The notes under the pieces: model-generated
What the model was told of the DNA's origin: nothing
Seen by the model: only the letters and a program-made list of their open reading frames with translations
Database searches by the model: none
In this document: in pieces, positions 1 through 55,278 of the stretch
How the letters are laid out: each line of letters opens with the position of its first letter
How positions within the stretch are numbered: the first letter of the stretch is position 1
Assembly (NCBI GenBank): GCA_036785375.1
Contig: JAWMAR010000008.1
Span: 806,001-870,000 of the forward strand
Origin: Leucoraja ocellata
Lineage: Eukaryota
Length of the DNA: 64,000 nucleotides
Reading direction: 5' to 3'
Made by a program: the position numbers and the translations under genes

Positions 1-282
1 TGATTGCATCATGCTGAATGCCCTTAAATCATTTTTTGTGATATTTAGGAATTGGTCTGAATTATCATTGTTGCAACTCACTCCTTTTTCTGTTTATTGG
101 AACCACATTTGCTGGACTGGGGAACTTGCCACATTCTGTTTGTAAAGGAACTTTAAAAAAATAAAGCTAGCAATGGGGAATATCTCCTTCAATTTCTCAA
201 ATACATTATCATCTGTCCAGAAAATTTGGAACGATATAATTGCTCTGGAACATGTTATTTACTGATTGCTATATTTATTACA

Positions 283-468
283 GGTAGACAAAAATGCTGG
301 AGAAACTCAGCGGGTGAGGTAGCATCTATGGAGCGAAGGAGTCTAAAGAAGGGTCTCGATCCGAAAGGTCACCTATTCCTTCGCTCCATAGATGCTGCCT
401 CACCCGCTGAGTTTCTCCAGCATTTTGGTCTATCTTCGATTTATCCAGCATCTGCAGTTCTTTCTTAA
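283..468. repeat. Penelope-derived palindromic repeat (inverted pseudo-LTR arms)
   Basis: Arm gtagacaaaaatgctggagaaactcagcgggtgagg and its reverse complement cctcacccgctgagtttctccagcattttggtctatc. Confidence 0.75.
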
Positions 469-1520
469 ACACCGATATTTATTACATGTCTCTCTGGAAT
501 GTGCCTATACTCCTGGCCTGTGTACACTATTCTGAAGAATCCATTCAAAGTCTTTGCTGCGTCTTGAGCATCAGAGGTGTCTTGCAACTAGTCTGTAATG
601 GTGGGTTGTGATCAGTGTCATGGCTTAACCAGATCTTTCTATACTGGTGACATATTTCCTATTCTGCACTGTTCTTAGAAGTGAACTGCAATTTTCCTTT
701 TTCTTTTATTCACTCACTCTCAATCTTGTCTTTATTTTCCCCCACAGGCTTTGACGTCACTTGCAAAGTCATGAAAGATGTTAATAGGTCTGCCAGGTTT
801 TGATTTCCTTTTCATGTTTACTGTCCTGATATGACCTTGCTCATTCTATTTGGTGGCTTAACCTAAGTGAAAATATTCTTTCCCTGCTGATCTCAGCCAT
901 GCCTCACTCACCCACAGTTTCACATCGGTGAAAGATCAACTCATTGTGCAAAAGACAGGAAAAAATTCTGAAACATCAGAACTGACAAAAAAAAAATTAG
1001 AGGTCTCTGTTGCTGCCAAGTCTACTTACAATGGTGAGCAGTTACTTTCAGCAAAACCTGCATATCAACAACCAACTGTCACCGGATTAGCGACGTTAAC
1101 ATATCTGAAGGGAACAAGAGCAGTTTCAATAATAGTTGTGCAGATGAGGAACCCCAGTCGTGACAGTGCAATTTAATGAATTTAGTCTCTGTGAATAATG
1201 CAAACTACGCAGTTAACGCTGCTTTTTGTTTGAAGGGGTGTACGTTGAATTTGTTATTTCTGATATTTCTAGCTTCGGAAGGCAACTCAAGTTGGATGGT
1301 TAAAGCATGGCCTGTCAATTTATCTACCATGAACAGCAGGGGAATTTCTGTTCAATATTTGAGGTCTCTCCTGTGCTTAATCTGCTTAAATTTCAGATGG
1401 TGTTCTGACATCTATTGACTTTGTTCTCATTACAATTACTGACGGGATGTTTCCCAGTCAATAAGTTAATTAAGACTGAATATCCAAGTCATAAAGGCAA
1501 AGAAAACACCGAAGTTACAA

Positions 1521-3915: not shown

Positions 3916-3996
3916 TCAAAATCCAAACACTCCCCCAACTGTGGATGCAATGACGACCCCCAGCACCACACAGCATATAATGATCATGATCTTCTT
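3916..3996 (-). CDS. STX1A: Canonical terminal transmembrane exon 10b: KKIMIIICCVVLGVVIASTVGGVFGF*
   Basis: Acceptor ggctacag, phase 0, TGA at 3916-3918. Matches the STX1A tail KKIMIIICCVILGIVIASTVGGIF including the Cys-Cys pair. Confidence 0.95.
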   Translation of the reverse strand, partial: KKIMIIICCVVLGVVIASTVGGVFGF

Positions 3997-6554
3997 CTGT
4001 AGCCCCCACATCCAAGCAGCATGACAGGAAGAAGAGGAGAAAGTGTTAGTTCTGTAACTTTATTTACATTTAAATGATTCAGGGTTTTTACAGAATGGAA
4101 GATGAAGCAATTCCAAAACAGATTATAACCTTCCCTTTACATCAGTAAATGTTCTTATTGATATCTTCTTGTTGCAGGCTCTTCATTTTAACAAACCATT
4201 AACATTTCAGAACCTACTTTGAAACATAAGTCCCTCACATTTCAAACCTCCCGCACACCACACATCTCTCGGTATAAATAGGACATCACATATTCCATCA
4301 CCACACTCCATCATATTCAGAAGCCATCCTCACATTAGACAACTGCTCACATTCGATGCAAACTACAACAACAATGCTCCCACTTCATATTTTAAATCTC
4401 TCTTCTTAACAAGTACCTGACATTAAACACTCGCTCATGACATTTTTTGTAGATTTAAGTAGCTGGAAACAGCTGGGGAGGTAGAGAGTATGATGTCTTC
4501 TTTCGACCTTTAATCTCAATGTAAAATGTTTACACATTATTGAAGTTAGTTAATAAGTTTTTGACTGGCATCTTACCCTAATCTACTTTTTGCTGTCAAA
4601 TTTGTATTTACAGTAATTGAAAAGCTTTGCAAAAGGAGCAGATTTTGGGAGAAAGAAGAGTATTCAAAATCCAATTTGGTTCAATCCTGAGTTGATAATA
4701 CAATACAATTTTAAGAGAGGGGTGTGATTCCAAGTGTGTGCACAAAGAGGTGTAAAGTGCATGTCCGCATGTAAGAATGTTATTTACTTTCAATTCACTT
4801 ACCATCAGCAGGCATTGAACTACATGAGGCTCGAAGGGCCGAATGGCCTACTCCTGCTAATTTCTATAGGGACACATTTTAGATTCCCTGTTGAGATGTC
4901 TGTTAAAATCTAGGCTATAATATAGACCTAAACTATCTTCTATTCCTTGTGGCCAATGGAATCATCAGCTTCTCCAACTTCTGTCAGTCTGTTATAGCAG
5001 CTCAACTATCCCATATAGTCCCTCACTCGTCACCTCACACACACCTTGTGAAAGGGTTGTAAACGTTTTAACAGTAGAGCGGCCATAAAATATACAATCA
5101 TGCAAAACAGCAAGCCACATCTTCAGAAATGGATGAGGAGAAAGTGAGAAATGTAATGCTGATACAAGAAGAACCGAGTAAAATCTAGAAAGGTACAACT
5201 CTCCTGTAGAACTATGGCACTATCCACATGTATTACATAGTGCTGTAGTTTTACAGCTGGATAATACTGTTCCAGTAACACATTCATTAGCAGTAGTGGA
5301 GACACGGGAGAGGATCCATGCTGTAACACAATACATTTCTCCCATGGCAATAAGGCTCATTTATTTTTGGGGAGAAATCGTATTACTTTTATTGCATAGT
5401 GTATTTATGTTTTTCCTTGGAGTCTATTATTATTCATTTTTTTGGGGTTAAATAACAGCACAGTTTGTATCACAGTTGATCATTTCTTTCAGATCAACGA
5501 ATTATTGTATTTTTATTATTTTGCCTTTGTCATTATTTCCTTTACAAGAATTGTTGTCAGTATTACATATGCCCATATATAATATGTGATAAAAGAAATG
5601 TTGACAATTTATAATTTTCCTTTAGTATGGTGAAAAACAAGCAGATAGAATGGAACTATAAACTGCAATGAATGATTTTATTTTGTGTTGTAAAATTATA
5701 TATTGAATATAATTTTGTGTTTGATATAAATACATTACCCTGTGCAATATTACTTAGAGAGACGGCATGATAAGCCTCAGTGTCCAGGATTGATATGGAA
5801 GGAAAAACAGTCAGGAGTATCACCTCTGATCACTACCCACAGACCTCTGCAGAAGTTCATGCAAGTACTCAGGAACTAAGGATGTAAAGCCAGACACAAT
5901 GACAAAAGGACACATATGTAGACCTATTCAAGAGATATTGAAAGGAAGTTCGCTTTCATTGTATACTTGCCTTTTTGGCAAGGGTTTATAATTTGTTGAA
6001 AAATACCAGATCTCTTAGACTTTTATTATAATCATAGCCAGAATCATTCTCAAAACCATTCAGACAACACCAATGTAAGTGTCGAGGTTAGGAGGAAAGC
6101 AAAACACTGCAGATGCAGGTTCTGATTGTTATTAAGTTATGCAGGGCTTATTGTGTTGCCATTTGTCAGTGTCGTAAATTTAGATCTATATTTTTTCCTG
6201 TAGAACTGTTCACGACTGCAAATTCATATATGGCAATATCCACACTCGTTCCTGCCTCTATACATGAACATGATCATGTTTTTATATGTTTTTCTTTACA
6301 TGTATCTGCATGTTTGATTATTTCCAAAATTCACATGGATCTGTGATGTCTTTTCCTGCTCTTTAATTTTTTTATTTTTTTTATGGGCTTAGTGGCTTGG
6401 ATTTCCCCAAGAAGATGGCAGGAATTTCTCATTGTAACTTATGATACTCATGCAAACATGAAACTTTGAAAAGGAATGCCTGTGGATTCATTCACTGTGA
6501 TGTTTGTACAGTTTCTTGGGGAGTTGATCAAGTGGGGAGGTTAGTACCTGACAA

Positions 6555-6885
6555 AGTATATTAAATTATGAAAGGCATAGATAGATTAGACAGTCAGAAC
6601 TTTTTTTTCCCATGAGGGAAATATCAAGTGCTAGAGGGCAAAGCATTAAGGTGAGTGGGGCAAAATTTAAAGATGTGTGGGGCAAGCTTTTACACAGAGG
6701 TAGGTGAGTGCCTGAAACCTCTGCTGATGGTCATGGTGGTGTCAGAAACGATAGTGGCATTTAAAAGGCTTTTGACAAGGCACATGGATATGCAGGGAGA
6801 TAGGAGTTGGCCTTGGCATCATGTTCAGTATAGACATTGTGGTCCGAAAGGGCTGTTCCTGTGCTGTACTGTTCTACGTTCTATT
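6555..6885 (+). mobile_element. CR1-type LINE 3' fragment (diverged)
   Basis: Typical 3' end: YKIMKGID-like coding remnant, tttacacagagg, tail ccgaaagggctgttcctgtgctgtactgttcta. Confidence 0.7.
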
Positions 6886-7447
6886 TTTTTAGGGCCAATT
6901 TGCTTCGATATGTGCGTCAGATAATTTGCATCTAATAAAAGCATTTTTTTTAAATTAGGACCCATGGATTGGTGTATGTGTCTGATCTGTAGATATTTGC
7001 AATGGATCATGTTTAGCAACAGTAGGCTGTAACTTCCTGGTAGTGGAAGGCTGCCCTTCTTCAGCAATAACATAGGTGCTAACCATGCATTTATATTTTG
7101 CTGATCCTTCAGTGTCAATATTTTGTATAGTCCCATCCTATTCTAAAAGGGAGAGATGCTACACAGTGACATGGTCATGTTATGCAATGGTGACATTTGA
7201 TAGACTAGAAAATGCCCAATATACAAAACAGCTGAAAGAAAAATCTGACAACCAGTAAAGCTACATCTCAAGCTTTACCAGCTGTCAAGAATTCTGAATG
7301 TCACTGGCATTATAGGAACATCCAAAAACAATTAAAAATGAACTTGCAGAAGTCCCCAGATCACCACCAGATTCCATAAGGAACAGTTGGGAAACTGCTG
7401 GCAGAACTCGCATAGCAAGTTGGAGACCTCCACAATTGCCCGGGAAT

Positions 7448-7917
7448 AGACAATAGACAATTGACAAATAGGTGCAGGAGTAGGCCATTCGGCCCTTCGA
7501 GCCAGCACCGCCATTCAATGTGATCATGGCTGATCATCCCCAATCAGTACCCCGTTCCTGCCTTCTCCCCATATCCCCTGACTCTGCTATTTTTAAGAGC
7601 CCTATCTAGCTCTCTCTTGAAAGCATCCAGAGAACCTGCCTCCACCGCCCTCTGAGGCAGAGAATTCCACAGAATTCCACCACTCTCTGTGAGAAAAAGT
7701 GTTTCCTTGTCTCCGTTCTAAATGGCTTACTCCTTATTCTTAACCTGTGGCCCGTGGTTCTGGACTCCCCCAACATCGGGAACATGTTTCCTGCCTCTAG
7801 CATGTCCAAGCCCTTAATAATCTTATATGTTTCGATGAGATCCCCTCTCATCATTCTAAACTCCAGAGTGTATAAGCCCAGCTGCTCCATTCTCTCAGCT
7901 AATGACGGTCCCGCCAT
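7448..7917 (-). mobile_element. Young 5'-truncated CR1 LINE 3' end
   Basis: ORF 7606-7917 (LGLYTLEFRMMRGDLIETYKIIKGLD...FFSQRVV) is the CR1 ORF2 C-terminus. (ctattgt)n tail. Flanked by direct repeat CCCGGGAAT at 7439-7447 and 7918-7926. Confidence 0.88.
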
Positions 7918-8837
7918 CCCGGGAATCTTCCAACCTCCAAAATTTAGGAGTAAAAGTTAGCAGTTCGGGCCTAAGCATAGTGTTTGCAACAGACCTGAGG
8001 CCAAGTTATATTCTGAAGAGATACCTAAAATAGCCAACAGGGAATGCCCAAAACCTTTATTTCTATGGACATCCAGAGATGTATTACAAAGAGACCATCA
8101 GCTAAATTGGAAGCTCGTGGAATAGAAGAAGAATTAGCGGTTTAAGATTTGACTGAGTGGCAGCAAATGGACGATTGAGTTAAGGTTGGATGTTCAAATT
8201 GGCAGCATAACTAAGATTAGCGTTGGGGTTGCAAAGAGTACTTGGATGACATGATAGAAAACAACATATTTAATTTGCCTGGCATGGCAAAACCGAAAGC
8301 ATTATAGACAAGAGCATTAATTTATAAGGAGCTAATGGATTAGGCAAATGCACAAAACAGGACTGATGTGACTGAATACCTTCCAAATGGTGTTAAACCA
8401 GAAACAATGGAGATCCAAAGGGGGGGCTGGATAAAGTATCACGGACAGATACTGAAAATAATAGGGCAAATATAATACTGGATTTTATATTGAGATTTTA
8501 TATAAAATACTGGATTTTATATCGAGAAATAAAATTAAAAGAAATTGAGAAATTCTGCTATGTCGTGATTGGACCATGCCTGGAGCACTGGGTGCAGTCT
8601 GTGTGCTACAAGTTGGGAAGGATATTTTGGCCTTAGACAGGGTAAAGCAGATTTATCGCAATAATATCTTAATTCTGAAATTCAACTGAATCTTAAGGAT
8701 TACATAATAAAGAGAAATTATGCAAAGGCCGTACTTCATGCAATTTACAAGGTTAAAGGGTTATCTGACAAGTTTTCAAGATAATAAAGGGAACAAATAC
8801 CAGATAAAGATAAACTATTTCCACTGATTTAAGAGTC

Positions 8838-9228
8838 CATCGAGGGGATTTATCGCAGTCGCTGCCTTAAAAAGGCTGGCAATATCATCAAAGACCCGCA
8901 CCATCCTGGCCACACACTCATCTCCCTGCTACCTTCAGGTAGAAGGTACAGGAGCCTGAAGACTGCAACAACCAGGTTCAGGAATAGCTACTTCCCCACA
9001 GCCATCAGGCTATTAAACCTGGCTTGGACAAAACTCTGATCATTAATAACCCATTATCTGTTATTTGCACTTTATCAGTCTATTTATTCATGTGTGCATA
9101 TGTTTATACAATGGTATATGGACACACTGATCTGTTTTGGAGTAAATGTCTACTATGTTCTGTGTGCTGAGGCAAAGCAAGAATTTCATTGTCCTATCAG
9201 GGACACATGACAATAAACTCATTTGAAC
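8838..9228 (+). mobile_element. Rex1/Babar-like LINE 3' end inserted in an older CR1 remnant
   Basis: Translates as RCLKKAGNIIKDPHHPGHTLISLLPSGRRYRSLKTATTRFRNSYFPTAIRLLN, then a 3' UTR ending gaatttcattgt...tgacaataaa. Confidence 0.8.
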
Positions 9229-9342
9229 CTGAGATGAAATGGCAGTCTAAAAATTGAAGTGAGGAATGAACACGTACTCATAAATTAGTCCGTCTGGAAC
9301 TGTTAAACTCAGATTATGAGGTTGTTAGATTTTTAATGGGAA

Positions 9343-9711
9343 CTAGACCAAGTGCAGACCCATTGGGAAGGGGGGTGGGGGGTTTGGAGCACTGGAGTGC
9401 CCCTCCCTCCCAGAGTGGCCCGACCTGCCTTGGGAGTGCATTGTGACATCACTCGGATTTTTTTTTCCAAAATGGGTGAGTTTGAAGAAATCGGGCTGTT
9501 TTAAAAAATTCAACAATTAATAACCAGAAATATAGATGGAAATGCGACAGGAAGATATTTATCGCTACCATGGGGGAAAATGTGAGTAGGATTTGTGAAA
9601 ATGGGAAGGCTGTGGCCTAGCGTTTGGAAGATGATAGGAATTAACAGGATTTACACATACAGAGACACGTCGTGGGCACAAACAAGACAAAGACTTTTAG
9701 TTATATAGAGA
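9343..9711 (-). mobile_element. Non-autonomous Helitron-like element
   Basis: On - strand begins A|TCTCTATATAACTAAAAG and ends cacttggtCTAG|T (5' TC, 3' CTAG, AT target, no TSD). Partial subterminal palindrome (cccaatggg). Confidence 0.6.
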
Positions 9712-9910
9712 TAACAATGGGAATAAGCAAACTTTGTTTTAGCCAGTCCCTTAGGATTTCGGATGAGTTGCTTTCATTCTGGTTCTGAGGTGGCTGATAA
9801 GGCCAATATAAGACCTTCCTTGGGCAAGTGTGGCTAGTGGGGTGGTCAGGTATGTGGGATGTGAAGCAATGAGCTCCTTCTGCTCATTACGTTAACCTTC
9901 TGCATGATTT

Positions 9911-10138
9911 GTTCAGTTTAGGGACACAGGATGGAAACATGCCCTTTGGCCTGCTGAGTCCATGCTGACCATTGATCACCCGTTCACACTAGTTTAATGT
10001 TTCCTTCTTTCTCATCCAAGCCCATACAGTTATAGGGAGAACGTGTAAACTCCACACTGACAGAACCCAAGGTTGGGATCGAACCCATGTCTCTGGCGCT
10101 GAGAGGCAGCAGGTCTTACTAGGTGCACCACTGTGCCG
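9911..10138 (-). mobile_element. HE1/V-SINE-like tRNA-derived SINE (internally deleted)
   Basis: Reverse strand has an A box (ggcacagtggtgcacc), B box ggttcgatccc and a CR1-derived tail. Confidence 0.75.
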
Positions 10139-10922
10139 GCCGAAATTCTCAGTGTCCTTCTGAATGCTCCTTATCTACTTTGAGCTGCCTGTATGGGCTC
10201 AGAAATCTTATGTTGCATTTTTTTTTTCTCCATAGGAGGAGGATATATTAAGTCACTGAACGGGCATAACAAGATCTGGAAATTAAATGGGTGAGTTCTA
10301 TTCCAACATTCATTTAGTAAAATTTGCTTGGCCATTTGCAGAGAGAATGACGAATAGTTTGAGAGAGACATTGACAAAGGGAAAAGAGGGAGAAGAGTGG
10401 AAAGAAAGACTGAAAGACAGGATAGAAAAAAAGGTAAAGTAGTAAGATGGGAAATAGAGAGGAAGGGAATGGAGAGTAATTGATTTTAAAATTATTTATA
10501 AAAATAGAAAAATCGCTGCAGAACTTCACCTGAATTCATCGTGAACTAATAAGTTTGTAAAATCATGGATCATATTCTGCTAAGGCAAGATGCAAATCAA
10601 TAATGCTTCTTAAGATTATACACATTGAAAGTAAACTAAAATGATAAATAAAAGAGTGTTGCTTGAATCCTGATGTTGCTCTTCAGCTTATGGAGATGCC
10701 AAAGCAAGCGAGGTCCGCACACAAGAGGAGAAGTCAGACCTGCAAGAATCATGCTCTTGGTGCCTGTAAGCAGCCCCTCCAGGAAAATCCTAGGTGTTGG
10801 CAAAATGAAATGGAGGTGTCCAGGAATGATGAGTTGTCGCCTTTCCTTTTCACACAAGCATACCATGGAACAACAGCTCAGCTTTAGTCAGGATGATTCG
10901 GTGGGTCATGCACTTTCGAGCA

Positions 10923-11000
10923 TTAACTGAGAGACACAGCCAAAGCAATGATGATAATCAACAGTACTACTGCAATGCATATTCCTATAAAGATCATTTT
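10923..11000 (-). CDS. STX1A: Alternative transmembrane exon 10a: KMIFIGICIAVVLLIIIIALAVSLS*
   Basis: Strong acceptor gttttcttcccttcccacag with branch-point-like CTCAC about 28 nt upstream. Phase 0. Lys followed by a 24-aa uncharged tail anchor and TAA. Too short for the ORF track, translated by hand. Confidence 0.82.
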   Translation of the reverse strand, partial: KMIFIGICIAVVLLIIIIALAVSLS

Positions 11001-11037
11001 CTGTGGGAAGGGAAGAAAACAGTTTGGTGAGGCTCGG

Positions 11038-11043
11038 CATGCA
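11038..11043 (-). promoter_or_regulatory. Rbfox element UGCAUG next to the exon 10a branch point
   Basis: CATGCA on + at -43..-38 from the acceptor, 6 nt upstream of the CTCAC branch candidate (11027-11031). A second copy lies at 10907-10912, just after the stop. Confidence 0.6.
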
Positions 11044-11449
11044 AATACGCACATCACACAAAGAAACTGCAGTAGCAACTAAAACATTCAAAATGTGATG
11101 CAAATTTCTGGCTGACAACTGGGCATATGTTACACACTGGAATAATACATTCAAAGTCATGACAGGAGACCAAACATGTCCCCACATATCTATGGCTCAA
11201 GGTTGGATAATGTTGGATGGCCAATTGAATAATGAGATAAAACCATGGCAGCACATGTGATGGGACTGTGGCAGTGTGTTCAGAGCACTATAGTCCCCAC
11301 AGAGCATCTCGGAATTTTTTCCAATAAAGAACCTTTAGAATGAGGTCTTATGACGTTTACTTTCAGCATGAAGATTCAGACTGCTATTAGAGTGCTTGGG
11401 TGTCAAGTTAGGGAAAGTAGCTTTTAGTTAGGATGGAGTCCCATCTTGC

Positions 11450-11827
11450 TACTTTATAGAGATGTGTAAGATCATGAGATGAATAGATCGGGTAGATGCA
11501 CAAAGTCTCTTGCCCAGAGAAGGTGAATTGAGGACCAGGGGGCATAGGTTTAAGGTGAAGGGGAAACGATTTAATACGAATCTGAGGGGTAACTTTTTCA
11601 CACAAAGGGTGGTGGATGTATGGAACTAGCTGACAGAGGAGGTAGTTGAGACAGGGTCTATCCCAACATTTAAGAAACAGTTAGACAGGGACATGGATAT
11701 GACAGGTTTAGAGGGATATGGACCAAATGCTGGCAGGTGGGACTAGTGTAGCTGGGACATGTTGGCCGGTGTGGGCAAGTTGAGCCGAAGAGCCTGTTTC
11801 CACACTGTATCACTCTATGATTCTATA
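11450..11827 (+). mobile_element. CR1 LINE 3' end
   Basis: Coding remnant tttatagagatgtgtaagatcatgag, then ttttcacacaaagggtggtg and tail gccgaagagcctgtttccacactgtatcactctatgattcta. Confidence 0.8.
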
Positions 11828-12949
11828 ACTCAGTGACCAGTTGCAGACAGGCATCGCATAAGACTTCAGGGCTTTTATTACAAGCATGAGATCTGCTTCT
11901 CACAGATCAACAGCCAGCACCAATGGTTTGCCCAGACTATACAGTGGGTGGCAGAGCCAACACAGCAGAACATGCATGCTGCCCCCATGCTTCTCTCTGC
12001 CAGGGCATTGAGGTGGCAATCAGTTTTTCCGTTCAGCACATGGTCCATCTTAAGGCTCGGTTTGTCATAAATAGGCACAGCTTCAAATCAAAAACACATC
12101 TTAACACACAGCAGCCAAGCTCTCAAGACAGCATTTGGAAGAAGCATGGAATTCAAGCAGCAATCATCATGCCTTAGAATATCTGCAATTCAACAATAGT
12201 ACGGAGATAGTGTCAAAATGGACAAAAATAAACCAGTAGTAGAGGACAATGCACCTGTAACTTGCTTTGTGTATCTGTGCACAACTGCTTAGCTGTTAAG
12301 ATTGTCAGGGTGAAATGATGCCAGCATACAAGTCCAATGCTGGCGGTCAGTGCAGAAGCCACTGGTAGGATGTAGGATTTGGAGGAAGTGGGCTGTTGAC
12401 TTGCTAACACTATGGCATCGTCTAGGTGCTCATTTAAAAGGCAAAGCTTCCTCAGACATGATCTATCAGTCAGTTGCTTCTGTTCACGTTATGTGGTGTG
12501 ACAATATTGGCAACTGGTGCTATATGCCTGTAACTATTCTCTCCCAGAGGGAAAAAGGATGCCGTGATTACATAACTGCTAAATCCAGGTTTCAACCATC
12601 ATTTTAGATGCACTAATATTTTTCTGTTTAGTTTTAATGAGCATATATTTCTCCTTTTTCTGAATTTTGTTGCATTTCTTTTCAGCAACTATTATAAAAC
12701 TTTATAATTACTTACTTTTCCTGGAATAAATAGGAATTGAAGATGCTCAAACATCTCCTGGACTATTTGTCCATCATCACTATCCCCTTTATATATTTTA
12801 AATAATTGCAAGTCATGTTAAACATGCCTTTCTGACCTGCGTAGTATGACCGAATAATTAGGAAAATTCACTGTTTGCTGTTCTAATAAATCTTTCAACT
12901 AATTATGCTAAAAATATTAATAAATCGTCTTTAAGAATTTCATAAGAGT

Positions 12950-14082
12950 TTTGTGAGTTTCTAGAGGCGGTAACAAAGGAGAAGGATGAAGACAGGGATT
13001 TTACATGCCGTTTAAATTGACTTTTGTAAGGCATTTGATAAGGTCCCATGTGGTAGGCTATTGCAGAAGGTTAATGCACATGGGATTCATGGTGAGCTGG
13101 CTAATTGGATCCCAAATTGGGGGTGGTGGAAAGATGTTTTCCTGATTGGAACTCAGTGACCAGTGGTGTACCGCATGGGTCGATGCTGGGACCTTTGCTG
13201 TTTGTGATATATATTAATGACTAGTGTGTTTGTGTGGGAGGTATGATTAGTAGGATTGCGGAGACACAAAAATCGGTGGTGTTACGAATAGCAAGGAAGC
13301 TTGTCTAAGACTACACCAGGATTTAAATCAGATGAAAAGTTGGGAAGAGGATGAACGGTTGGAATTTAACCCCAACAAGTTTGAGGTAATGAATTTTGGG
13401 AAGTCAAGCAGGGGCAGATTAAATGTTTGGAGACTTAAGGAATACTGATAAACAGAGGTCTAGGGGTCCAAGTCCATAGTTCCCCAAAAATGGCACGCAG
13501 ATCAATAGGGTGGTGAATAATGCATAGAACATGAGGCTTCAGTGGCAGGGCATGGAATGTAAAAGTTTGGATGTTTTGTGGGAATTTTACAAGACATTGA
13601 TTAAGCTGCGTGAAGTACAGTATTTTTGCGCAGTTCCTATTGCCACACTTGAGGAAGCATGTGATTGCACTGGTGAGTGCAGAGGAGATTCATCAGGATT
13701 GGAGGACATTAGTTATGGGGAGAGAGTGAATAGACCAGGCTTGTTTTCCCTGAGCAAAGGAGACCAAAGGGTGACCTGATAGAAGCATATAAGATTCTGA
13801 GGGATACAGAGAGATTATGAGGATAGATAGTCCACAACCTTTTCTCATGGTAGGGCGTGAATTTTAAGGCGAGAAGATGGAGCTTTGAGATTGATATCTC
13901 AAACATGCTGCCATAGGAGGTGGTTGGATCAGATTAAATGACTACATTTAAGAGGCATTTAGACATAATTTAAATAAGCAAGCACAGAGTGATACAGTCC
14001 TAAAGTCAGATTAGTGTAAATCGCAAAAAGGTTGGCATGGATGTTTTGGCAGAAGGGCCTACGTTTATGCTGTGCAACTCTA
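12950..14082 (+). mobile_element. Degraded CR1 LINE ORF2 (RT and 3' end)
   Basis: Frameshifted RT motifs DFCKAFDKVP, SGVPHGSMLGPLLFVIYIND, (F)ADTKIGG, then a CR1 3' UTR. Confidence 0.85.
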
Positions 14083-16540
14083 AGAGTCTTTATATTCACA
14101 CCCTATACCATCAAGGCTGCAATGATGGGAAATAATAAATTCTCCGTGTCCTACTACCTGTATAACCTAGAGACTAATTCTGACATAGTTGTAAAAATTA
14201 ACCAGAAGTTTCTCTGCTTATTTTCATCAGCCCAATTAGGTGAATTTCTCCAAACCAACTAAAAAATAGATTTAATTTGAGAGGACTCCTAATCACCAAT
14301 TTCCACCCACAAAACCACATCTTATCCCTACACACATACATGCAAGCAGAGCTGATTAGCAGTGATTATGTTAGTTAAGGATGGCACTTCAATTTATGCT
14401 CATAGAAATCTTTTTTTTTCATTTTTAATAGATCACATTTTTAATTAAACTAACTACGAAGCTATTGGCCGCACACTGATGAAATTATTCAGTCAAGGCT
14501 ATAAAAGATATGTTTATTGACTGTATCAGATTCCCAGAGATGGAAGAGTGGACCCATATTAAAAATTTCTATTCTGATGAAAAATCCATTTTAAATGGTA
14601 TTAATAAAAATGCCCTAAAGTTATTTCTTGGTGTAGTTGATGAAAAAGAGATAAACGTTCTGTTCTACTGCCCAACTGCCCTTCATTGAAGATTTTAATT
14701 TAAACAGGCTTGCACAATGAACCACCAAAATTAAACCTTGGGCATGGTTGCCTGATTGCCTAACCCAAACTGATCAGTAATTTATGTTCTAACATATGTA
14801 ACAAACAATAGAATTTGGTTTTTAATCTAAAACAGGCTGCAGCTTATTAATTGTATTTGCTTATTTTGAATTGTTAATTAACAAGCTAGCATGTTTTTAG
14901 TAACAGAAGGCAGAACACTGGAAGAACTCAGTGGGTCATGCAACGTCCGTGGATGCAAGAGGGTAAGTAAATATCTCGGGTTGGGATTCTACATCAAATC
15001 CAGACCTGCCGGACTCTTTGAGCTGTTTATCGATCCAGATTCCAGCATCTGCCGTCTCCTTTGTCCTCTAACATTTCTTTATGTTTCAAACCCATTCCCC
15101 ATACAACAATTTTTTAATCAATTAATTAATGAATGATCAGGCTCAGCAGCATTCTTACCATTCAGTGACATTTGGTGAACTCACACCTATCAACAGAGTT
15201 TTATTTCGATTTGAAGTACATGTATCCTTGATTGCTTGCATTAGAATAAATGGCAATAATGCTACTGTAATAGATGTATGCGAATCAGAATGATTAAATT
15301 ATAATAAATACACTATGGATATACGGATTGTTGGAATAGATGAAAATATGATAAATTAGTGGCATTAATTGGATTGTATGAAAGCCAATTAAGTGAGGAC
15401 AAAACTGAGGTAGATTTTGCTAAGTGTAATCTTTAGCTTGATTGGCTCCAGATAGGTTGGGCTGGAATTAATATCAAGTAGCAGAATAAATGAGTTGAGA
15501 TTGATTTGAGGTAGATTATAGTGGACAGATTTTAATAGAAATGATTCAATTATACTGACTGCTTCTGCCCACATCTGCAGAATGAATATTTCTTATCTGT
15601 TGATTGTAAAACTTAAAAAATAGCCCAGACTAAGTGACCTAGTCCAAAACCAAACATAATTGAGCAGATTTTAAAATAAACCAGTCAGCTCTTGCCCAGG
15701 GCTAATGCAGGAAGTAAAACAATAATAATGCTGGTACAACAAGGAAGCTTAATCGAGGCACAAGTGAGATATGTGGGTTTTTTTGTTGTTGGATGGAGAC
15801 CTTGCCTTACACGAGGCCTTGACAACTGGTGAAAATGGGTGATACATACAGTGGCCAAGAAAATGGAAAATAAAACAGAAGTTGACAGCTGTATTGTGCT
15901 GACCTGTTATATACAGTTGGGCAAATAACATTGGATTGATTTTATTCAAAATGATTAAATTTAGATAGATTATAACAGAGTGAATTATATCAGGATAGGT
16001 TTATTTATAAGACACTGCAGCGGTATTGATTTGACAAGGACATATTAAATTCCCCGATGGGAGGGATGCAATAAATAAATACTACTGGACAAATTGCACC
16101 ATCTGAGATTAGATCCTACTCATTGATTTATATTGGAGATAGATTTAAACAGGCAATGCATCATTTAGGCATGATGGGTGTCAGGGGTTATGAGGAAAAG
16201 GCAGGAGAATGGGGTTAGGAGGGAGAGATACATAAGGAATATGTACAGGGAATAAATTGCACTGAATTAGATGCTGTTAATATTAGCAAAGTCTCAAGAT
16301 AGATGGCAAGAGGAAAATAATGGTTGATTGGTTTCTCCTCTGTTCTCCACCATGTCATTGTATGATTGTTAAGTCACTGTGTGCAAGTCCTGCCTCACAA
16401 TTCTTCCAATCCCTCTGTAAATGGAGCTGGCAAAATGTCACATTACATTAACTTGTATAAATGACAGATGGTGTATTGGCTGCTTTTGGGATCAGAGGAA
16501 TGAATGAAAATGGCCTTTCCAGACAATGGGCATGAAAGAC

Positions 16541-16756
16541 TGTGTCGGAAAGAACTGCAGATGTTGGTTTAAATCGAAGGTAGCCACAAAATGCTGGAGT
16601 ACCTCAGCGGGACAGGCAGCATCTCTGGAGAGAAGGAATGGGTGACGTTTCGGGTTGAGATCAGTCTGAAGAAGGGTCTTGACCCGAAACGTCACCCATT
16701 CCTTCTCTCCAGAGACGTTCCCTGTCCCGCTGAGCAACTCCAGCATTTTGTGTCTC
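16541..16756. repeat. Penelope-derived palindrome with intact hammerhead-like core (16666-16693, +)
   Basis: Near-perfect inverted arms around CTGAAGA-AGGGTCTTGACCC-GAAA-CGTC. Confidence 0.8.
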
Positions 16757-17697
16757 GGCATGAAAGACCCACTGAATGTCGTAAATGTCAATACTAAGAA
16801 GTGTACGCATCTCTCCCAGGGTCCCACACCAAAAATGTTGCTTGACCTCATATTATTCTTAACCGACACTCTTTAACATACATCACAGAATCGGCTGATG
16901 CATGTGTTCTCTGCATCACACACCACTCATCACGAACTATACCTCGCAGTGTGTTACTGTGCAATGTTGTGAATAGATTAACATATTCACAAAGGTAAGC
17001 TTACATCATCACCCAATTTTCATGTATCTATTTGAGATGTCAGATCACTTTCTTCACTTAGTTTTTACTTCTACTTTCATCAAAAAGATGTTCTGATTTT
17101 TACAATGTGGGACAAATAATCATTGCTGAAACATAGTTTCACCCTGGCAAACAACAGCAATGAGATGGGGAAAGTGATTGCAAGATTTATAGTGTACATT
17201 ATGATCTAAGTTTACATCTAAGTTATAGAGAGTTATATGCAGCACAGGATCGCATGCTCCTGGACGCTATTTTTAACGTGCCTCTAGAATATCTTGTTTC
17301 TGATTTATAAATGTTTGAGTTACACCTTTTAAATACGTGAAAAACTGTGCAGCAACATAATGCAATGTGTGCACTTCTGAACTGTCGAAATTTCCTGAGG
17401 TGAAGAAAGCAGTTACATTTCTGTGAAAGACTCACAGTCCCAGAGCCAATTATAATATGTGAAGAGTATAATTGTTATCACTGACAGTCATAAAGCCAGT
17501 CGTGTGTGCAGAATATATAACCCTCATAAATCTTATTACAGCATGGGCCCCCCTCGGTGGGAGGGAAGTCGACCAACTGATGGAGTAACAATTATAGACA
17601 CACACGTGCACAATGAGATGAATACAGGGTTGCAAAACTTTTTTTTTTTGTACGGTCTCTTGTGATGGAATTGGGGACGCACAGTGAGGTCATCACG

Positions 17698-17703
17698 CAT
17701 GCA
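17698..17703 (-). promoter_or_regulatory. Rbfox element UGCAUG just downstream of the exon 9b donor
   Basis: CATGCA on +, 25-30 nt into the intron after exon 9b. Downstream position is the enhancer position in the Rbfox RNA map. Confidence 0.6.
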
Positions 17704-17727
17704 GGGTTGTTGACGTGCACTACTCAC

Positions 17728-17838
17728 CCGGCGCGCTTTACTCTGGTACTTAACCGCCTTTTTTGTGTCAGACACTGCCCTCTCTACGTAGTCAACTGAG
17801 TGCTCGACGTTGTATTCGATCCTGTCTATCATCTCTCC
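17728..17838 (-). CDS. STX1A: Exon 9b, canonical syntaxin-1 C-terminal SNARE half: [37 protein letters not shown]
   Basis: Acceptor ctctttcctcgatgcccag, donor CGG|gtgagt. 111 bp, phase 0/0. Essentially identical to vertebrate syntaxin-1 residues 227-263. Confidence 0.96.
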
Positions 17839-17914
17839 CTGGGCATCGAGGAAAGAGCAGACACGCATGAAAGTAACAGAGGTGCTTCAGCGGCCATTGT
17901 CCCCAGTCACTTAC

Positions 17915-18025
17915 CCGCCGGCTGGTACTCTTAAAATTAACTGCTTTTTTTGTGTTCTCCTTCGCGTCGCCTATGTAATCCGTTGCATTAACAACGTTCC
18001 TCTCAATGCTGTTGACCACATCACC
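17915..18025 (-). CDS. STX1A: Alternative exon 9a, syntaxin-2-like C-terminal SNARE half: [37 protein letters not shown]
   Basis: Acceptor tctttctccttctgtttcag, donor CGG|gtaagt. 111 bp, phase 0/0, open frame. 16/37 aa identical to exon 9b, with heptad-layer positions identical or conservatively changed. Confidence 0.88.
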
Positions 18026-20982: not shown

Positions 20983-21120
20983 CTGGCTTTCCACCAGCAT
21001 TGCCATGTCCATGAACATATCGTGCAGCTCGCGAATACAGTTCTCCAGTTTGATGATCTCATGATGTCGCGTTTCAATCTCATTTAGAGCCTGCTTCGTG
21101 ATGTTGGAATCCATTATGAT
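20983..21120 (-). CDS. STX1A: Syntaxin-1A-like coding exon (exon 8 equivalent, N-terminal half of Qa-SNARE to the zero-layer Gln): [46 protein letters not shown]
   Basis: Acceptor ctcttctcttag, donor CAG|gtaaga. 138 bp, phase 0/0. SGIIMDS and MFMDMAML fit STX1A better than STX1B (DIKMDS, MFVDMAML) as recalled. Confidence 0.95.
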
Positions 21121-27798: not shown

Positions 27799-27872
27799 CC
27801 CTGATGTGAAGATAGCAGGATTCCCACTCTCCAGCATGTCTTCCAGCTCCTCATTTGTGGTCGTTCTTCCAG
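27799..27872 (-). CDS. STX1A: Syntaxin-1A-like coding exon (exon 7 equivalent, linker): (T)[24 protein letters not shown]
   Basis: Acceptor ttattctag, donor GGG|gtaagt. 74 bp, phase 1 to 0. Contains the linker [15 protein letters not shown] with the L165/E166 equivalent. Confidence 0.95.
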
Positions 27873-55169: not shown

Positions 55170-55278
55170 TGATTTCAAGTTGGCGTTGGATTCGTCCTTT
55201 GCAACGCTCCCTGTAGTCGGTCTGTGTGCCATTGTACTCAGACATCACTTCCACAAATTTACGAGACAGTGTAGAATG
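55170..55278 (-). CDS. STX1A: Syntaxin-1A-like coding exon (exon 6 equivalent, Hc helix): [36 protein letters not shown](T)
   Basis: Manual translation. Acceptor ttttgtttgcag, donor A|gtgagt. 109 bp, ends in phase 1 and joins the next exon as A+CT = Thr. Peptide is near-identical to syntaxin-1 residues ~120-156, including the Cys145 equivalent. Confidence 0.95.

Follow-up and report, generated by a model that had tools for sequence, protein, structure and literature searches.

Paired alternative C-terminal exons in the syntaxin-1A gene of Leucoraja ocellata

Exon layout, identity and distribution of the cassette

The window analyzed here, a stretch of 64,000 nucleotides (nt) covering positions 806,001–870,000 of Leucoraja ocellata contig JAWMAR010000008.1 (contig C8 herein), carries the gene for syntaxin-1A (STX1A) on its minus strand. 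Following exon 8, the gene contains two versions of exon 9 (9a and 9b) and two alternative last exons encoding tail anchors (10a and 10b), referred to below as the cassette. A preliminary description of this DNA had reported the two 111-bp paralogs of exon 9 and the two tail-anchor exons, all in phase 0, and their coordinates, splice sites and open frames were verified on both haplotypes of the assembly. Exons 9a and 9b are identical at 64 of 111 nt and at 16 of 37 amino acids (aa), and both 10a and 10b code for a basic residue with a hydrophobic anchor, ending in a stop.

The 20,982 sense bases located after exon 8 were scanned without reference to these exons. A search for an AG, a G-starting open frame of 111 nt and a GT recovered only 9a and 9b, and a search for an AG followed by a K/R-starting hydrophobic stretch of 20–40 aa and a stop recovered only 10a and 10b; the same anchor-exon scan gave no matches on the opposite strand. 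The second haplotype (contig C49) showed no differences from the window in 381 exon bases, and three in the 76-nt intron between 9a and 9b. The acceptor of 10b is weak, with 9 pyrimidines in the 20 positions before the AG, versus 17 of 20 for 10a. Exon 9b is identical to solved syntaxin-1A chains at 36 of 37 residues and 10b encodes the canonical STX1 anchor, in agreement with the earlier assignment of the 9b+10b product to canonical neuronal syntaxin-1A.

The identity of the locus as STX1A is established by its tree and by its neighboring genes, which are described further below. Exons 2–8, assembled from the window and from upstream stretches of the same contig, encode 216 aa without a stop. 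They are 92–100% identical to annotated STX1A entries (197/197 for Narcine STX1A, 92–99.5% for the others), as against 84–85% for STX1B-like proteins, 67–70% for STX2 and STX3, and 46% for STX4. Exon 8 is 100% identical to the annotated shark and ray STX1A entries, and exon 9a is identical to Narcine 9a at 31 of 37 residues. In a tree of exons 2–8 (36 entries), the window grouped with shark STX1A with a support of 98/90 (starred), and the entire STX1A set received 87/87. A grouping with STX2 or STX3 was tested by tree and by identity, and neither placed exons 2–8 there.

The cassette is conserved across the jawed fishes. STX1A with exon 9a is annotated in seven sharks and rays (Narcine, Scyliorhinus, Carcharodon, two Chiloscyllium, Stegostoma, and Cetorhinus), and in Stegostoma there are separate 9a and 9b isoforms with otherwise similar ends. 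Isoform X1 of STX1A from the coelacanth, Latimeria, is of the 9a+10a type; a region search with the coelacanth 9a+10a end returned three proteins from eight candidates. When a cyprinid 9a+10a end was used as the query, a hand count of the best 120 of 125 matches gave STX1A forms with 9a in more than 30 named ray-finned species, and the matches listed included sturgeons, eels, tarpons, mormyrids, herrings, cyprinids, loaches, characins, one catfish, and one surfperch. Additionally, two Logan proteins from other fish cover the 9a+10a protein in full; their contigs measure 1,604 and 1,078 bp, lengths consistent with spliced mRNA. The paired cassette had been thought special to the STX1A of this lineage, a claim that does not survive its presence in sharks, coelacanth, sturgeons, and teleosts. 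STX1A isoforms of the 9a type are already included, without remark, in automatic RefSeq annotation.

Among 113 entries from the coelacanth and from organisms that were tetrapod-named or unnamed, 91 carried 9b, 21 had no exon 9, and 9a was present in the coelacanth entry only, a distribution of annotated entries which suggests that 9a and 10a were lost in tetrapods. The 9a entries of fish are identical to the window 9a at 16–31 of 37 residues and most 9b entries are identical to the window 9b at 35–37 of 37, so that 9a appears to evolve much faster than 9b. In five cyprinid STX1A entries (P0335, P0337, P0338, P0339, and P0342), exon 9b, otherwise near-invariant, is diverged (28/37 in the entry tested) and is paired in the annotation with 10a, which gives the impression of a gene that is losing its neuronal form.

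Age and origin of the cassette

The four exons of human STX3 are arranged in the order 9A-9B-10A-10B, with 119 nt between the two exon 9s (PMC8373072). The window cassette, with two 111-nt phase-0 exon 9s and two tail exons, has the identical order. In a tree of exon 9 (33 entries, 37 columns), the B exons of STX1A, STX1B, and STX3 were found on one side of a branch supported by 90/95 (unstarred), and forcing all the STX1A exon 9s into one clade was rejected by the approximately unbiased (AU) test (p-AU 0.026). In the tree of the anchors (30 entries), the B tails of STX1A, STX1B, and STX3, together with one insect tail, form a clade supported by 100/99 (starred). Taken together, the exon order common to human STX3 and the grouping of the B exons across genes indicate that the cassette is probably older than the split between STX1 and STX3.

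The non-B tails split weakly into one group with the first tail of STX2 and STX3A, and another with 10a of STX1A, the second tail of STX2, an extra tail of fish STX3, and STX4. By this tree, the family has three classes of tail exons and not two. In fish STX3 (entries P0277, P0388, P0393, P0398, P0410, and P0411), there is an additional, third tail exon that falls into one class with the window 10a. The simplest reading would be one ancestral cassette, comprising a pair of exon 9s and as many as three tails, which was trimmed differently in each gene: STX2 would have kept A, STX1B and tetrapod STX1A would have kept B, and STX3 and fish STX1A would have kept both. The preliminary description had likewise proposed an ancestral A/B cassette partitioned by exon loss, and this part fits the exon trees. 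Its two-form cassette has to make room for a third tail class, and its vertebrate date for an older one, as the C-terminal events of STX2 and STX3 have been dated to Bilateria through Daphnia (Martinez Gomez 2021, PMC8373072).

Arthropod Syx1A models (bumblebee, woodlouse, thrips, and dragonfly; P0190, P0226, P0228, and P0281) show a second exon 9 behind the canonical one. The order of these exons is B and then A-like, the reverse of that in vertebrates, and the second exons of insects look B-derived; the arthropod pairs may be separate duplications. A Brachionus model with an A-like and then a B-like exon 9 was given little weight, being a fusion of tandem genes.

STX1A, STX1B, STX2, and STX3 are presumably products of the vertebrate genome duplications. 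The tree of exons 2–8, however, places the invertebrate Syx1A with STX1A/1B, apart from STX2/3, and so does not support a simple four-way vertebrate duplication. This placement is one of several points that weigh against the account given here. With an alignment of 37 columns, the A-type exon 9s form no supported clade and the B branch is unstarred; the AU test was not significant when STX1B was added (p 0.055) or for STX3 (p 0.13); and three STX1A entries from eels and mormyrids carry a hybrid 9a/9b exon.

A cassette that is real and used, but that arose independently in STX1A and STX3, or whose 9a and 10a were shaped by conversion from STX2, would have no common ancestral form. Such an origin could accommodate both the A exons, which are not a resolved clade, and the AU values, all three of which are borderline, and the arthropod pairs, by their order and by the B-derived second exons of insects, imply that exon 9 is able to duplicate repeatedly. 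It accounts less well for the identical four-exon order and short 9A-9B intron of human STX3, for the grouping of both the B exons and the B tails across genes, and for the published Bilaterian age of the STX2 and STX3 events (PMC8373072), and we regard it as improbable. The reading favored here continues to be that of one ancestral cassette.

Splicing and predicted function of the alternative forms

Pairing was counted in all the stored STX1A entries with one exon 9 and an anchor. The combination 9a+10a was found in 35 entries, 9b+10b in 109, 9b+10a in 5 (all of them cyprinid and with the diverged 9b), and 9a+10b in none, although the searches were query-biased and these counts are not expression levels. 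One additional 9a+10a entry (P0327), initially included in a tally of 36, was removed as an intron read-through. Up to four C-termini had been envisaged, and all four are formally possible, but 9a+10b occurs in no stored protein, and the use of exons 9 and 10 is likely coupled, mostly as 9a+10a or 9b+10b.

Exons 9a and 9b are also likely to be spliced either-or. Their equal length, common frame and similar sequence agree with the definition of mutually exclusive exons in PMC5740500. In the 76-nt intron, plausible branch adenosines, read by eye, are located 28, 41, and 47 nt from the 9a donor, within the distance of less than 50 nt from donor to branch point given for steric exclusion (PMC5740500), and the short intron would thereby sterically favor the use of one exon or the other. 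An inverted repeat with arms around 9a and 9b, for pairing of the docker-selector type, was not present in a repeat scan of window positions 1–22000 with a minimum length of 22.

The hexamer TGCATG, which we take to be an RBFOX-type motif, is present at +25 of 9b and at −43 of 10a, each with a chance of ~3% per 60 nt at the density of the window, these intervals having been picked after inspection of the sequence. An RBFOX motif located 3' of an exon promotes its inclusion and a motif located 5' represses it. By this rule, the arrangement suggests a neuronal switch of the RBFOX type, favoring 9b and repressing 10a. Conservation of the motif is hinted at indirectly. The dipeptide Cys-Met occurs within 30 residues in 7 of 10 read-through tails after STX1A 9b from other species, ranging from kiwi to sturgeon, and likewise in the window's own tail, as compared with 0/20 tails after exon 8, 0/4 after 9a, and a background of 1 in 1,503 dipeptides. 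It is an in-frame reading of TGCATG, but TGC and TGT are indistinguishable in such tails and the constant frame is unexplained. Counts of motifs presumed to be of the NOVA, ESRP, and PTB types gave no clear pattern.

Besides the limits just given on the counts, the chosen intervals and the dipeptide, three further points count against this account of the splicing. TGCATG is also found at −28 of the constitutive exon 8, at +11 of 10a and at +102 of 10b; 11 further STX1A entries, one of them a RefSeq sturgeon isoform, have 9a and 9b in tandem; and the support for the use of 9a and 10a comes mostly from gene annotation, which is able to spread by homology.

If 9a and 10a were relics in this species, still encoded but seldom if ever included in the protein, the much faster change of 9a would be in keeping with it. 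That idea is very unlikely in view of the splice sites, frame, and inner layers, which are intact on both haplotypes, the strong acceptors, the retention of 9a and 10a from sharks to coelacanth and teleosts, and the short contigs of other fish with the entire 9a+10a protein. The cassette, real and conserved, is very probably used. Inclusion of both exon 9s, which would double the C-terminal helix of the syntaxin or lengthen its stalk, is allowed by their frame and is represented by the 11 tandem STX1A entries and by four stored STX3 entries; however, most of these are "hypothetical" or submitter models, the candidate branch points are no more than 47 nt from the 9a donor, and 9A and 9B of human STX3 are regarded as excluding one another, their junctions being counted separately (PMC5740500, PMC8263458), so that we hold tandem inclusion to be highly improbable.

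The resemblance of 9a+10a to STX2, noted in the preliminary description, stands. The window 9a is identical to exon 9 of the STX2 gene from the same genome at 23 of 37 residues, and to the window 9b at 16 of 37, and 10a belongs, in the anchor tree, to the non-B tail class that includes the distal tail of STX2. When the C-terminal half of STX2 was placed in STX1A, the primed pool was smaller and spontaneous release was raised, and the STX2-type substitutions D231N, R232N, Y235R, E238V, V248K, and S249E were tested in mouse neurons (PMC10957171). The window 9a carries D231N, Y235R, E238V, V248K, and S249E exactly, and R232S at the sixth site (numbering by register from the zero-layer Gln). With five of the six substitutions, 9a+10a can be regarded as a natural near-copy of the STX1A-2(Cter) chimera. 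The inner SNARE layers V-I-V-A-I-A-T-A are retained in 9a, the eight layers past the zero layer being hydrophobic and small as in STX2, and 9a+10a should therefore still zip into the SNARE bundle, while the outer face of its helix would be altered relative to the 9b form. By analogy with the mouse experiments, the most likely role of 9a+10a would be in non-synaptic exocytosis that is constitutive or only loosely clamped, or in a tonic mode in some neurons.

Overall, we think it likely that STX1A of this batoid keeps an old paired C-terminal cassette with either-or splicing. After exon 8, the spliceosome would take 9a or 9b and then the proximal 10a or the distal 10b, mostly in the two matched combinations. 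The 9b+10b form would be canonical neuronal syntaxin-1A, and the 9a+10a form would join the N-terminal domain and first SNARE half of STX1A to an STX2-like second half and anchor, with the same inner layers and a different outer surface. In this scheme, an RBFOX-type switch would favor 9b and repress 10a in neurons, the 9a+10a form would be less clamped, with a probably non-neuronal role, and the cassette would predate the STX1/STX3 split. A broader proposal, which we offer only tentatively, is that STX1A of all non-tetrapod jawed vertebrates might be a two-purpose gene, with an RBFOX-type switch between a clamp-competent synaptic form in neurons and an STX2-like, loosely clamped form elsewhere; its ancestor would have had two exon 9s and three tails, STX1A, STX1B, STX2, and STX3 would represent different deletions, STX1A of tetrapods would have become purely neuronal through the loss of 9a and 10a, and in a cyprinid stx1a, conversely, 9b would be decaying.

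Neighboring genes, related syntaxins and known systems

The coordinates of the features in the window are given in Table 1.

Table 1. Features of the STX1A gene in the window (positions counted from the first nucleotide of the window)
Feature	Position	Strand	Details
STX1A exon 6, common to all forms	55170..55278	-	tblastn match and boundary check
STX1A exon 7, common to all forms	27799..27872	-	tblastn match and boundary check
STX1A exon 8, N-terminal half of SNARE motif, last codon = zero-layer Gln	20983..21120	-	138 nt, GT donor
STX1A exon 9a	17915..18025	-	111 nt, AG...GT, phase 0, stop-free
Intron 9a-9b	17839..17914	-	76 nt; candidate branch adenosines at most 47 nt from 9a donor
STX1A exon 9b	17728..17838	-	111 nt, AG...GT, phase 0, stop-free
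TGCATG, 25 nt 3' of exon 9b	17698..17703	-	motif scan; position identical on haplotype 2
TGCATG, 43 nt 5' of 10a acceptor	11038..11043	-	motif scan; position identical on haplotype 2
Exon 10a, coding part; alternative tail anchor, proximal last exon	10923..11000	-	25 aa and stop; candidate poly(A) signals at 9998, 9337, 9088
Exon 10b, coding part; canonical STX1 tail anchor, distal last exon	3916..3996	-	26 aa and stop; candidate AATAAA at 2999, 2947

A TBL2-like open reading frame or exon lies ~20 kb beyond the start of the window (score 0.97 to TBL2 clusters, with a recognition value below threshold). On the same contig, 1.8 Mb away, is a cluster of four claudin genes, of which the one tested was closest to claudin-4 and -3, and further along than the claudins is a WAC-domain gene. 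Human 7q11.23 holds TBL2, STX1A, CLDN3, and CLDN4 (PMC6256167), and with its TBL2-like exon, claudin-3/4-like cluster, and WAC-domain gene, the window contig matches this (Williams-Beuren) gene block. A point against the match is that the BUD23 marker PF12589 gave two weak matches genome-wide, on contigs C5 and C2095, and none on the window contig. The orthology assumed at first is thus borne out by the grouping of exons 2–8 with STX1A and by the 7q11.23-type neighbors on the contig. That the locus could be STX2 or STX3, in which switching is already known, as the STX2-like look of 9a and 10a and the failure to find STX3 or STX1B in the assembly might suggest, can practically be dismissed given that exons 2–8 are STX1A by identity and tree, that a distinct STX2 gene exists on contig C281, and that the neighbors come from the 7q11.23 block.

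The BCL_N marker PF04714 was dropped as a synteny marker, as it matched genome-wide (150 of 476 candidates were scored). At least 150 matches to this BCL7 N-terminal family, nearly all to model positions 2–29, are dispersed across the genome; they are perhaps a repeat with a captured BCL7 exon, or many retrocopies. Within the introns and 3' region of STX1A, the repeat scan showed short palindromic repeats and a fragment at window positions 267–471, 1511–1711, 16541–16755, and 7609–7957, which we take to be palindromes resembling miniature inverted-repeat transposable elements and a fragment resembling a long interspersed nuclear element (LINE). Downstream of the window there is what is presumably a Tc1-like transposase fragment (L021:8234–8680).

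In the 28.5 kb scanned, the STX2 gene on contig C281 shows a single exon 9, of the A type, and a single anchor exon. No STX3, STX1B, or spliced STX4 gene was found in the 3.44-Gb assembly in searches with STX1A, STX3-like, and STX1B-like proteins and two exons, the best candidates being scored; the absence of STX1B and STX3 may reflect missing sequence rather than loss, and no gene loss is claimed. An intronless, 5'-truncated STX4-like piece, 78% identical to Mobula STX4 over 98 aa, is located on contig C368 at ~1470340–1470680 (L006:2836–3180), right behind a LINE-like 3' end, and is probably a processed copy. Contig C125 contains two near-identical, intronless, divergent syntaxin genes (L010:7548–8414 and L013:7986–8840), ~25% identical to STX1A and separated by 267 kb; an isolated, incomplete copy of the gene's own SNARE half lies ~6.3 kb upstream of each.

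No description of paired exons in STX1A was found in a literature search of titles and abstract starts, mainly of papers outside subscription journals. The catalogue of PMC8373072, restricted to human genes, gives STX2 and STX3 C-terminal events and no STX1A event, and the supplement of PMC5740500 includes the STX3 exon pair. PMC9741552 does not mention STX in the main text, and its supplement has STXBP1 alone; the review PMC11119284, in the passages covered, names STX1A and 1B as isoforms of STX1 and describes the SNARE/anchor switch solely for STX3. What is new here is a cassette of the STX3A/3B type in STX1A, the classical syntaxin of the synapse, in fishes; automatic annotation contains it, and no description of it was found. 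The surprise is tempered by the same switch being well known in STX3, by its published great age, and by isoforms standing unremarked in RefSeq. If splicing in fish STX1A does exchange exactly this C-terminal half, the STX1A/STX2 chimera experiment has already been performed by evolution, and the plasma-membrane syntaxins of vertebrates, both neuronal and non-neuronal, can be viewed as fixed splice forms of one ancestral gene. The origin of STX1 neuronal specificity becomes testable in zebrafish relatives, skate, and sturgeon; as a caution, stx1a expression in fish need not imply the neuronal protein.

Among the known systems, the duplicated exon 5 of SNAP25a/b likewise belongs to a neuronal SNARE and its two copies are mutually exclusive, but the protein is another one, and the exon is internal and has no paired last exon (PMC2581893). 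The engineered STX1A-2(Cter) chimera is artificial and in mouse, whereas in the natural 9a+10a form the anchor is exchanged as well, and there are additional changes near the membrane (PMC10957171). STX2 has an A-type exon 9 and alternative anchors (PMC8373072 supplement, event 205), and the second human STX2 tail falls into one class with the window 10a; however, STX2 has a single exon 9, all 36 stored STX2 entries being A-type, and the STX2 gene of this genome has one tail in the stretch scanned. Closest is the STX3A/3B switch of mammals, the analogy drawn at the outset, whose layout is that of the window: common exons 1–8, two 111-nt phase-0 exon 9s, two tails, a short 9A-9B intron, and a B form that is STX1-like (PMC8263458, PMC8373072, PMC5740500). 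The two differ in that the window 10a and human STX3 10A fall into separate non-B tail classes, and in that the host here is STX1A, with the B form as the canonical neuronal one, while in STX3 the B form is retina-specific and STX3A is broadly expressed (PMC8263458).

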